64,000 bases of DNA from Chloroflexota bacterium (lineage in GTDB: Bacteria; Chloroflexota; Limnocylindria; Limnocylindrales; CSP1-4). The stretch spans positions 101,009 to 165,008 of the forward strand of contig JBFMAT010000001.1 of the NCBI GenBank assembly GCA_040755495.1, written 5' to 3'. Made by a program: the position numbers and the translations under genes. The notes under the pieces are model-generated. The model was not told the origin of the DNA. It worked only from the letters and a program-made list of their open reading frames with translations, and searched no databases. Within the stretch, counting starts at the first letter, position 1, and each line of letters starts with the position of its first letter. Of the stretch, positions 931-63,849 are shown piece by piece.

Positions 931-1425
931 ATGACGCTGGGTGCCTGGCGGCAGTGGGGCTCACCGCCCACCACCGCCCAGATGGCGATCGGGATCTCGG
1001 ACGCGCGGCGGCCGATGTGGCTTGCGCTGACGCGCTGGCTGTGGGAGACGTACGGTCTCGAGGGCGAGCTCACCTGGACCGACGAGGACGAGGGCTGGGT
1101 CCTCCGCTACCGGCGCAACGGCCGGGCGCTCACGACGCTGATGCCGGGGGCGAGCGGCGGGTTCGGGGCGCTGGTGGTCGTGGGTCCCTCGATCCTCGAG
1201 GCGGCGCTCGCCGCGCGGCTGTCGGAGACGACGCGCGAGACGCTCGAGTTCGCGAAGCCCTACGCCGACGGACGCTGGCTGTGGCTCAAGGTCACGGAGC
1301 CCCCCGTCGTGGAGGACATCGAGACCCTGATCCGGCTCAAGTCGCCGCCGCCCCGGCGGCCCCGTCGGGGTGTCGTCGATGCGGCCGCCAAGGAGCGAGA
1401 CCGGGAGCTCGCCTCGACCGGCTGA
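931..1425 (+). CDS. DUF3788 domain-containing protein
   Basis: Inner part of ORF 856..1425. The ATG at 931 is preceded by GGAGG with a 7-nt spacer. The pattern W-x-LRYR..G..L...Y-x-DGRWLWLKV...DIETLIRLK matches my recollection of DUF3788. Confidence 0.6.
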   Translation: MTLGAWRQWGSPPTTAQMAIGISDARRPMWLALTRWLWETYGLEGELTWTDEDEGWVLRYRRNGRALTTLMPGASGGFGALVVVGPSILEAALAARLSETTRETLEFAKPYADGRWLWLKVTEPPVVEDIETLIRLKSPPPRRPRRGVVDAAAKERDRELASTG

Positions 1426-1465
1426 GGCGGCGGCGGGTCCGGCGGGGCGGGCTTCGCGGGGCGGG

Positions 1466-1507
1466 TCTCGCGCGGCGGTTCTCGCGCGGCGGTTCTCGCG
1501 CGGCGGC
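1466..1507. repeat. Tandem repeat, 14-nt unit TCTCGCGCGGCGGT x3
   Basis: Read directly: units at 1466-1479, 1480-1493 and 1494-1507 (last base differs). Lies just 3' of the DUF3788 stop codon. Confidence 0.8.
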
Positions 1508-1606: not shown

Positions 1607-1754
1607 GCCTGCTGGACAGGCGTCCCGATGAAGGTCCCATCCTCGCGCCTGCTCAACAGGCAGATACGTGGAGATGGCGTCCGTGTTTCTCGGTCCTGCC
1701 TGCTGGACAGGCGGGATTCGGTGGCTGCTTCATCCGTAGGCCTGCTGGGCAGGC
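1607..1754. repeat. Four-hairpin intergenic element, copy A
   Basis: Hairpins GCCTGCTGGACAGGC (1607-1621), GCCTGCTCAACAGGC (1647-1661), GCCTGCTGGACAGGC (1698-1712) and GCCTGCTGGGCAGGC (1740-1754). Centre spacing is 40/51/42 nt. The spacers carry complementary GATGAAG / CTTCATC. Confidence 0.65.
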
Positions 1755-1942
1755 AACGCCGGAGCGGCACCGCGCCAGGCCCCGCGCCAGGCTGCCCCGC
1801 GCCGGGCGACACGAGGCGGGCGGCACGCGCCGGGGCGGTCCGCGCGACGGTCGAGCGGCCGGGACCTGCACCCGCGAGCGGCCAGACGGTCCTGCCGGAT
1901 GTCCCTTGACCAGGCGACCGGGCATCACGGACGCTGGCACGG

Positions 1943-9552: not shown

Positions 9553-9634
9553 GCGCCGGGGCCCCTACCGGCCGCCCGGGCCAAGCGCCCGACGCCGCTG
9601 CCCGCCCCCGGCGCCCGCCCCGCTGCGGACCCGC

Positions 9635-9796
9635 CGTGCGCGGGACGCACGGAATCTCGACGCCTGCGTCGCGATCGTGCGTGGGACGCACGAGGACGGC
9701 CGATCTCGGCCCTCGTGAGCCCGGAATGGCGTCTCGGTCGTGCGTCGGACGCACAGCCACGACAGGCGGGTTGGGAATCCGTGCGTGGGACGCACG
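9635..9796. repeat. Four-hairpin intergenic element, copy B
   Basis: CGTGCG-N5-CGCACG hairpins at 9635-9651, 9676-9692, 9739-9755 and 9780-9796. Loops are CGGGA, TGGGA, TCGGA and TGGGA. Spacing is 41/63/41 nt. Lies between convergent genes. Confidence 0.65.
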
Positions 9797-9890
9797 GCGG
9801 CGAGTGCTCCACGGCGGGCGAGGGTCGCGGCGCGCGGCACTGGCTTGGCGATCCCTGACCGGCGAGCGCCTACTCCGGTCGGCGCCCCTG

Positions 9891-30328: not shown

Positions 30329-30476
30329 GGTCGCTGGGAGACCCAACGGTCGCACCGTGCGACGGTTCGGTCGCCGGCCGCCCGGTTCGTCGCGTGGATC
30401 GGTCCAGCGGTGCAACGAACGCGGCGCTGGGCGACCGGTCCGTCTCGCCGCGCGCCCGTTCGGTCGCTGGGCGACC
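30329..30476. repeat. Four-hairpin intergenic element, copy C (148 nt)
   Basis: GGTCGCTGGGAGACC (30329-30343), GGTCGCCGGCCGCCC (30369-30383, degenerate), CGGCGCTGGGCGACC (30422-30436) and GGTCGCTGGGCGACC (30462-30476). Aligns without gaps to 63702-63849. Confidence 0.65.
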
Positions 30477-63701: not shown

Positions 63702-63849
63702 GGTCGCCCGGCGACCCAACGAGCGCACGGTGCGACGCTTCGACCGCTGGGCGCCGGGTTCGTCGCGCCCACGGGGCTCGCCGCGCAACGAACGACGCGC
63801 TGAGCGACCGATCCGTCTCGCGCTGCGCCCGGACGACCGCTGGGCGACC
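63702..63849. repeat. Four-hairpin intergenic element, copy D (148 nt)
   Basis: GGTCGCCCGGCGACC (63702-63716), GACCGCTGGGCGCCG (63742-63756), GCGCTGAGCGACC (63797-63809) and GACCGCTGGGCGACC (63835-63849). In a gapless hand alignment to 30329-30476, about 115 of 148 positions are identical. Confidence 0.65.

Follow-up and report, generated by a model that had tools for sequence, protein, structure and literature searches.

The 64,000-nt window analysed here (C1:101009-165008 of genome G000, a Chloroflexota assembly of 3.74 Mb and 73.6% GC) contains, 181 nt downstream of a gene encoding a DUF3788 protein, an intergenic element of 148 nt that we refer to as copy A. It holds four matches to the palindromic pattern GCCTGC-N3-RCAGGC, and the 12 matches that the whole window has on both strands were reached by none of 100 shuffles. 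Copy A belongs to one of several hairpin types that occur as dispersed repeats in G000 and its relatives, and we have weighed the idea that each type is paired with its own paralog of a putative DNA-binding protein. G000 is the main genome of this work, and the comparison genomes are designated by G numbers, among them G007 (Chloroflexi bacterium RBG_16_72_14) and G017 (labelled 'uncultured Anaerolineaceae', 62% complete); all of them are metagenome-assembled genomes. The elements of G000 were found by BLAST and a pattern detector, and genes were called with a purpose-made, crude codon-bias caller.

Copy A consists of seven modules: hairpin H1, spacer S1, H2, a central module, H3, spacer S3 and H4, of 15/25/15/36/15/27/15 nt, and each of the four H modules is one 6-3-6 palindrome (Table 1). 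The first-pass annotation of the window had placed four 15-mers here, spaced by 40/51/42 nt, and these coordinates proved to be exact. The same is true of the length shared with two other copies in the window, C and D, and of the position 3' of the DUF3788 gene behind a 14-nt tandem repeat. Moreover, copies B, C and D, for which the same modular plan with other stems had been described, do exist in the window. In the minimum-free-energy fold of either strand, copy A forms a single long hairpin in which H1 pairs with H4, S1 with S3, and H2 with H3; the long-range complementarity of GATGAAG and CTTCATC that had been noticed between the two halves is present, and the two spacers that hold it are paired. 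The fold energy is -80.6 kcal/mol for RNA of the plus strand (z -4.46), -79.3 kcal/mol for RNA of the minus strand (z -6.08) and -38.6 kcal/mol for DNA (z -3.28). None of 200 shuffles was as good in any of the three cases, which removes for each strand the initial doubt that the element might fold no better than shuffled sequence.

The loop of H1 reads TGG in copy A, as in its own H3, whereas the orthologous elements of G007 and G017 both read TCA (in the context CTCAAC); a small conversion event inside the element thus probably gave H1 the sequence of H3 in the lineage of G000. An open reading frame that starts from an ATG inside S1 (1628-1909) was dismissed, as conservation does not track codons.

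Table 1. Features of the window, element types and candidate partner genes. Coordinates without a contig refer to the window, those with a contig to G000.
Feature	Coordinates	Strand	Description
DUF3788 gene	931-1425	+	PF12663, E 7.6e-22 (Pfam)
Tandem repeat	1454-1506		14-nt unit, 3.8 copies; between the DUF3788 gene and copy A
H1	1607-1621		6-3-6 palindrome GCCTGCTGGACAGGC; top pair a C.A mismatch; same sequence as H3
S1 spacer	1622-1646		own small hairpin, GATG 1627-1630 / CATC 1638-1641
H2	1647-1661		GCCTGCTCAACAGGC
Central module	1662-1697		family consensus a hairpin of ~11 bp, AGGATCGCGAAG..loop..CTTCGCGGTCCT; degraded in copy A
H3	1698-1712		GCCTGCTGGACAGGC
S3 spacer	1713-1739		inverted counterpart of S1, diverged; its CTTCATC pairs with the GATGAAG at 1627-1633
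H4	1740-1754		GCCTGCTGGGCAGGC, perfect 6-bp stem
Tandem repeats	1757-1834		units of 12 to 15 nt, directly 3' of copy A
Copy B	9634-9798		B-type, CGTGCG..CGCACG, 41/63/41; candidate partner gene of the type C32:19593-20228
Copy C	30329-30476 (about)		C/D-type, GGTCGC..GCGACC, 40/53/40; candidate partner gene of the type C28:5178-5819
Copy D	63702-63849 (about)		C/D-type
Type C/D			stems GGTCGC..GCGACC, spacing 40/53/40; ~29 copies in G000
Type B			stems CGTGCG..CGCACG, spacing 41/63/41; ~10 copies in G000
Type E			stems CGGCTT..AAGCCG, spacing 42/63/42; 5 copies in G000
Type F			stems GGACT..AGTCC, spacing 42/63/42; 2 copies in G000
Type A			stems GCCTGC..GCAGGC, spacing 40/51/42; 1 copy in G000
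Paralog on C32	C32:19593-20228		B-type element upstream, C32:20343-20513
Paralog on C28	C28:5178-5819		C/D-type element upstream, C28:5963-6143
Paralog on C3	C3:35155-35778		F-type element upstream, C3:34864-35048
Paralog on C9	C9:40389-41030		G-type element upstream, C9:41091-41270

Conservation and turnover of the elements

The plan H-S-H-central-H-S-H is common to several types of element in G000 (Table 1). In all types, each S module has a small hairpin of its own and a longer hairpin stands at the centre; the left half is an inverted repeat of the right half, so that the element as a whole is a nested palindrome. Beyond this common plan, no sequence similarity between the types is detectable. 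A proposed echo between the start of the third spacer of copy A (GGGATTCGG) and the GGAATC motifs of copy B is therefore unsupported, since the motifs occupy non-equivalent modules of elements that have no detectable sequence homology. The centre-to-centre distances of the hairpins are 40-42, then 51-53 or 62-63, then 40-42 bp in all types (including the elements at G000 C7:29204 and at locus L165), which is roughly a whole number of helical turns (4, then 5 or 6, then 4); the longer central spacing exceeds the shorter one by about one turn.

A search with BLAST and with a covariance model built on 23 copies found full-length A-type elements in two congeners, at about 20 loci in G007 and about 12 in G017; in G000, copy A was the only one. 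The covariance model also matched related full-length loci in G005 (about 15) and several each in G066, G069, G075 and G076. The A-type S1 motif has a narrow distribution: among 185,579 species genomes it occurs in G007 and G017 only, and in public metagenomes only on contigs of the G007 population, chance matches aside.

At the DUF3788 locus the copy is orthologous in G000, G007, G017 and G005, whereas G001 has no element there; the hairpins are thus kept in three other species, which answers the question of the first-pass annotation whether orthologous regions would preserve them. Between G000 and G007, the element is 87.2% identical and the gene 84.2%, as compared to 39% for the upstream and 44% for the downstream spacer. 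The two genomes agree at all 48 stem bases of the element but differ at 19 of its 100 remaining bases. The same gradient is found among the 23 A-type copies: mean pairwise identity is 0.76-0.91 for the hairpin stems (H4 being the best conserved hairpin of the family, with a stem identity of 0.90-0.91), 0.82 for S1, the best conserved module outside the hairpins, 0.62 for the central stems, 0.59 for S3, 0.43-0.58 for the loops and about 0.40 for the flanks. In the central helix (helix 5), 67% of the cells are paired across A-type copies.

The locus is otherwise variable from the DUF3788 gene to a lysA-like gene. The gene downstream of copy A (1943-2479) encodes a protein of 178 amino acids that resembles a signal-peptide-bearing protein or lipoprotein and has no Pfam match; its counterpart in G007 is an unrelated lipoprotein-like gene of 142 amino acids on the opposite strand. 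The 14-nt tandem repeat is missing from the orthologous locus of G007. Short tandem repeats with units of 12-45 nt stand directly beside A-type elements at many loci (in the window at 1454-1506 and 1757-1834, and at L016, L017, L027 and L032:2010-2095) and vary among orthologs; in G005, H1 has given way to a tandem duplication. Such repeats beside palindromes suggest slippage or fork stalling.

In the G005 ortholog (15/25/15/36/15/26/15 nt, with S1, centre and S3 still recognisable), the H2 sequence is GCTCGC-TCA-GCGAGC and H4 has GCGAGC as its 3' half, i. e. two base-pair swaps are common to two hairpins. Further variants of the same scaffold carry GCCCAC/GTGGGC in all four hairpins (G069, spacing 41/52/41), GCCCGC/GCGGGC (G066, G069 and G084) or GCCACT/AGTGGC (G002). 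Between subfamilies, compensated stem changes hit all four hairpins together, and compensation is seen only there. Within the A-type, the local hairpins of the 23 copies have 80.5% paired cells versus 80.9% after column shuffling, with covariation scores of 0.098 and 0.108, respectively. For the long-range fold, 76.6% of cells are paired, and neither pairing nor the covariation score exceeds the column-shuffled controls. The covariation check by RNAalifold and pair counting thus gave no signal for either fold, and the earlier suggestion of selection on structure does not hold within the A-type. Because pairing and covariation of the copies do not exceed those of shuffled controls, we conclude that the stems are kept as sequences rather than by compensation; copies with a mutation on one side of a stem do not make up for it on the other.

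The genomic context adds to this picture. None of the 40 elements of G000 lies in a gene. Intergenic regions between convergent genes are enriched about 2.3-fold, with 13 of 38 elements against a background of 13-15%, and tandem and divergent spacers are occupied as well. Among 22 A-type copies, the H1 side points towards the 3' end of a gene 12 times and towards a 5' end eight times; tandem contexts are split 4 versus 4 between the two orientations, seven copies are convergent and four divergent, so that orientation is random with respect to gene direction. For the C/D type, orientation relative to local GC skew, a proxy for the direction of replication, was concordant in 16 and discordant in 9 cases; this difference lacks significance, and the skew itself is very small. 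Moreover, the loops switch between TGG and CCA independently of the stems, including the C.A top mismatch of the stem, and a scan of the window against Rfam 15 returned only one tRNA and no match at the element. DNA palindromes fit these data better than a strand-specific RNA does.

The A-type has largely collapsed in G000. The flanks of the A-type loci of G007 and G017 have counterparts of 85-96% identity in G000, and the only A-type hairpins found in G000 besides copy A are at C21:59331 and C45:8552. At C45:8552, a lone GCCTGCCCAGCAGGC takes exactly the place that the complete element has between the two flanks in G007 and G017, and hairpins are absent from this site in more distant genomes whose neighbouring genes are the same. 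Since the element is full in G007 and G017 and the outgroups are hairpin-free, it was deleted between its outer hairpins. For the same reason, the possibility that the solo hairpin was a pre-existing insertion target was rejected at C45. A similar remnant is located on C13 of G000, near 25.4 kb. Of five sites common to G007 and G017, four are lost or changed in G000, only the DUF3788 copy being intact. Not one of 15 comparisons of occupied and empty sites revealed a target-site duplication or a clean empty site; they showed a retained hairpin or imprecise larger indels instead. Finally, G000 has a related but different element, the G-type, at C23:8291-8470, C9:41091-41270, C36:1096-1290 and C24:3405-3549, in intergenic regions whose orthologs in G007 or G017 hold an A-type element. 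Spacer identity is about 50% there, while the flanking genes are about 95% identical, which suggests allelic replacement or conversion rather than drift by point mutation.

Candidate partner genes and their product

The gene beside the G-type element on C9 encodes a protein in which an XRE-type helix-turn-helix (HTH) domain is followed by an uncharacterised C-terminal part. When six genomes were searched, seven close paralogs were identified in G000; tblastn gave a total of 11. Four of the seven close paralogs have an element 60-320 nt away on their upstream side, and these elements are of four different types (Table 1). As only about 1.2% of genes have such a neighbour, and the elements had been catalogued independently of the paralogs, the probability of this coincidence is about 7e-7. 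Another four-site array (42/62/42) accompanies a fifth paralog, on C42, and palindromes of other kinds form arrays upstream of the paralogs on C14 and C33. The pairing is also present elsewhere: a paralog on C76 of G007 has C/D-type hairpins upstream, and one on C19 of G005 has the B-type. The orthologs of the C9 gene itself carry an A-type element in G007 (gene at C77:58506-59147), a G-type element in G017 (C106) and a local variant in G005 (C22). The G000 protein is only 62-64% identical to its orthologs in G007 or G005, whereas other flanking genes are about 90% identical, and the recognition helix reads IPRSRYSRIERL in G000, IPRTKIGRIERG in G007 and VSRSTVGRLERG in G005; among the paralogs, too, the recognition helices vary. 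No member of the family was found near the A-type hairpins of G000, and copy A is thus an orphan in this genome. Homologs on long metagenome contigs have no obvious four-hairpin arrays in their upstream regions; the pairing may therefore be restricted to this genus.

The neighbourhood of the C9-lineage gene is kept in distant relatives, with a purine nucleoside phosphorylase gene and in G005 also a ThyX-like gene (L189, which is G005:C22:78000-82000, L191 and L194); given this conservation, it is a resident chromosomal gene and not an obvious mobile island. Nearly every XRE/nuclease-like paralog has the motif CCGATAAGC (variants GGATAAGC and GGGTAAGC) about 40-60 nt before its start codon, placed between element and gene (G000 C28, C33, C14, C32 and C3; L191:1160-1175). 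This motif is possibly a common promoter element of the paralogs. In addition, G000 has a second repeated architecture of three palindromes (GGCCTGACAGGCC or GGAC..GTCC) about 62-72 nt apart, at C5:98084, C53:19768 and C56:12907, and one such array lies upstream of C14:50192-50830, a more distant paralog of the family.

The N-terminal HTH domain of the protein scores above curated cut-offs, with 50.5 bits for PF01381 (HTH_3; cut-off 23) and 36-49 bits for PF13560 (HTH_31). Searches of Pfam, NCBIfam, PADLOC and PDB sequences for the C-terminal domain matched the HTH part only, and at least 283 homologs are named no further than 'XRE-family regulator'. AlphaFold2 predicts the full protein with a mean pLDDT (predicted local distance difference test) of 91.3 as a five-helix HTH domain followed by an alpha-beta-beta-beta-alpha-beta domain. 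With the full-length model, Foldseek results were dominated by HTH matches, among them C.AhdI, C.Esp1396I, SinR, P22 c2 and HipB. Modelled alone (pLDDT 90.6; predicted template modelling score, pTM, 0.84), the C-terminal domain had AF1548, OkrAI, R.BspD6I, Bax1, Cdn1/Can2/Card1, VC1899, the R2 endonuclease domain, BamHI, Hjc and RecU as its best PDB matches, with E-values of 0.04-0.5; nearly all of these are PD-(D/E)XK nucleases. The acidic residues E113, D126 and E139, placed on successive strands, vary little or not at all across both subfamilies. Judging from these models, the C-terminal domain likely adopts a PD-(D/E)XK-like fold, and nuclease activity is a prediction that goes with it.

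What the pairing may mean, and what else could explain the elements

We favour, with a probability of roughly 0.55, the reading that copy A is an orphan A-type nested-palindrome intergenic DNA element and that each hairpin type is paired with its own HTH/nuclease-like paralog. The H palindromes would be the recognition sites of a type-specific protein whose N-terminal XRE HTH would bind the palindrome as a dimer and whose C-terminal PD-(D/E)XK domain would reside in the same polypeptide; we infer this binding from the adjacency and the predicted fold. Each hairpin type of the genus would have its own paralog, with one element upstream of the gene and the other copies dispersed between genes. 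The A-type partner gene would be the one present in G007, while its ortholog in G000, diverged to 62%, carries the G-type; in the absence of the partner, decay may have left the A-type of G000 with a single intact copy, two remnants that are solo hairpins, and deletions. The protein would either mobilise or convert the elements, in a manner similar to REPIN/RAYT systems or to homing, or use them as an operator or regulon array. If such a partner binds the palindromes, three properties of the elements would follow: (i) the stems would be conserved as sequences, with four identical stems per element; (ii) a shift in the specificity of the partner would change the four stems together and with full compensation, because the site of a dimer must stay palindromic; and (iii) orientation relative to transcription would be irrelevant.

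Several observations weigh against this idea. The close paralogs on C33 and C47 and three distant ones have no clear four-hairpin array, and no partner has been identified for the E-type. The collapse of the A-type in G000 fits the decay of an orphaned family; however, G017 is a partial counter-example: it has the G-type-associated ortholog (95% identical to that of G000) and yet about 12 A-type copies, so that explaining the collapse takes more than the loss of the partner. G017, being 62% complete, could hold another paralog. The G-type elements are poor four-hairpin elements. Adjacency is not function, and the gene calls come from a crude caller; the Foldseek E-values are weak, and the canonical lysine of the (D/E)xK motif is out of its usual place. 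Finally, there were no clean insertion junctions or target-site duplications, and the elements are thus only putatively mobile.

It is tempting to go one step further and to speculate that the putative sequence-guided nucleases cut or resolve their cognate cassettes, possibly as cruciforms, and thereby drive copying or homing-like gene conversion, a proposal that we regard as tentative and on balance doubtful. If it were true, the joint switching of the four hairpins, the presence of A-type and G-type elements at orthologous sites of different genomes and the deletion of orphaned A-type elements to solo hairpins would all follow. The elements would then represent a new bacterial class of repeat and enzyme, comparable to REPIN/RAYT systems but built on the restriction-endonuclease fold, in which protein specificity and hairpin sequence co-evolve.

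Alternatively, the elements might be purely regulatory. The palindromes would then serve as operators for an ordinary XRE repressor that controls its own gene and uses a catalytically inactive C-terminal domain for dimerisation or sensing; its regulon would be made up of the dispersed copies, nothing would be mobile, and the families would have arisen by duplication and drift. Each paralog has one array ahead of its own promoter, the nearest structural matches of the HTH domain are controller proteins and repressors of paired palindromic operators (C.AhdI, C.Esp1396I, SinR and P22 c2), the hairpins are spaced near whole helical turns, and the stems are conserved by sequence, not by compensation. 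As in the case of the restriction-modification C proteins C.AhdI and C.Esp1396I, an XRE-type HTH gene lies just downstream of palindromic sites and is associated with a restriction-endonuclease fold. Here, however, the HTH and the nuclease-like fold share one polypeptide, the sites are dispersed in tens of copies, and four sites extend over about 150 bp instead of the two adjacent sites of a C-box operator. A methyltransferase gene was not seen beside the genes either, but no search aimed at it was made. Moreover, a third of the copies occupy promoter-less regions between convergent genes, and the entire 148-bp cassette is copied, including the spacers and the central hairpin that are not sites. 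With 20-30 copies per family, fast presence/absence turnover between genomes that are about 93-95% identical, and invariant acidic residues in the nuclease-like fold, we regard a purely regulatory role as unlikely.

Somewhat less probable still is that the elements are selfish DNA similar to REPINs, with single-stranded hairpins mobilised by another transposase and the copies upstream of XRE genes being tolerated insertions or captured operators. REPINs are doublets of REP (repetitive extragenic palindromic) sequences that occur with RAYT transposases in Pseudomonas fluorescens and other bacteria (PMC3116915, PMC3337134). The REPINs described in these two papers offer several parallels: short palindromes let the whole element fold as one long hairpin, here with strong z-scores but from four hairpins plus inner ones rather than two REPs; the copies are exclusively extragenic, vary in number between lineages and persist vertically at orthologous sites; there are single-palindrome remnants and no target-site duplications; and one genome has several families, each tied to a single-copy partner gene that adjoins a member. 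The repeat-and-partner pairing thus resembles REP/RAYT systems, but with a different kind of protein: unlike RAYT, a Y1/HUH transposase, the candidate partner joins an XRE-type HTH to a PD-(D/E)XK-like domain. The RAYT/Y1 transposase domain PF01797 had no match in G000 and 11 relatives, copy-rich genomes such as G007, G017 and G005 included, whereas control genomes were positive. The GTAG tag is not a feature of the family either: GTAG precedes H4 in two of 23 A-type copies, one of them copy A, while the consensus is GTAC or GGAC and other types have CGTTGG or GAATCC. In contrast to the two REPs of a REPIN, the elements consist of four identical hairpins with 6-bp stems and 3-nt loops, two spacer hairpins and a central hairpin; unlike RAYT genes, the partner gene has an element upstream only, as far as checked. 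No near-identical paralogous copies point to recent transposition, and chance insertion is a poor explanation for a one-to-one, type-specific adjacency to a single protein family that is replicated across genomes.

A structured RNA, be it a terminator, a stabiliser of mRNA 3' ends or a small RNA selected for its fold, is very improbable: the predicted folds are strong, four species share the position of the element 3' of the DUF3788 gene and convergent intergenic regions are enriched, but there is neither an Rfam match nor covariation within the A-type, orientation is random and copies occupy divergent promoter regions as well, the loops flip, no hairpin of copy A is followed by a U-tract, and the asymmetric conservation of S1 and S3 is unrelated to the direction of transcription.

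Comparison with other palindromic repeats and significance

The CGTC-tagged REPs are inverted dimers with structured spacers of 20-100 bp and have no dedicated transposase (Di Nocera et al. 2013, PMC3733652); their stems of 8-9 bp start with A/T pairs and enclose loops of 4-5 nt (PMC3733652). Our elements are similar in that the palindromes form inverted dimers with conserved stem-loop spacers and no RAYT is associated, and the A-type happens to have CGTC at the junction of H1 and S1 (GCAGG-CGTC-CC). In contrast, their stems are GC-rich and 6 bp long, their loops have 3 nt, and the tag is absent from the B, C/D, E and F types. The BIMEs (bacterial interspersed mosaic elements) of Escherichia coli are mosaic clusters of alternating REPs (Y, Z1 and Z2) with defined linkers and a variable number of units, and are bound by host proteins. 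A fixed mosaic of palindromic units and linkers that is repeated between genes is common to both, but the elements described here have four identical units in a fixed cassette of 148-165 bp with overall dyad symmetry. MITEs (miniature inverted-repeat transposable elements) such as Correia and ERIC are imperfect palindromes of about 100-150 bp that are dispersed in intergenic regions, and in size, imperfect symmetry and location our elements are like them. Unlike MITEs, they have no target-site duplication at the examined junctions and no terminal inverted repeats matching an insertion sequence (PF01797 being the only transposase family searched), and an internal fourfold hairpin repeat is not a feature of MITEs.

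To our knowledge, most bacterial palindromic intergenic repeats outside the RAYT-associated REPs have no known partner protein or mode of spread. Our literature search found REPIN/RAYT systems and GTAG- and CGTC-tagged REPs described, and nothing on XRE/endonuclease-like proteins paired with palindromic repeats. In the uncultured Chloroflexota genus studied here, several repeat families can each be assigned a separate paralog, all from a single uncharacterised protein family. If this pairing is functional, it would be a second, independent case of a repeat population that is kept by a single-copy, host-resident enzyme. It would also provide natural, matched pairs of proteins and DNA sites for studying the co-evolution of specificity, as well as a testable explanation for the concerted change of four hairpins. 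The pairing also offers a first hint at function for a family whose more than 280 proteins bear no annotation beyond 'XRE-family regulator'.

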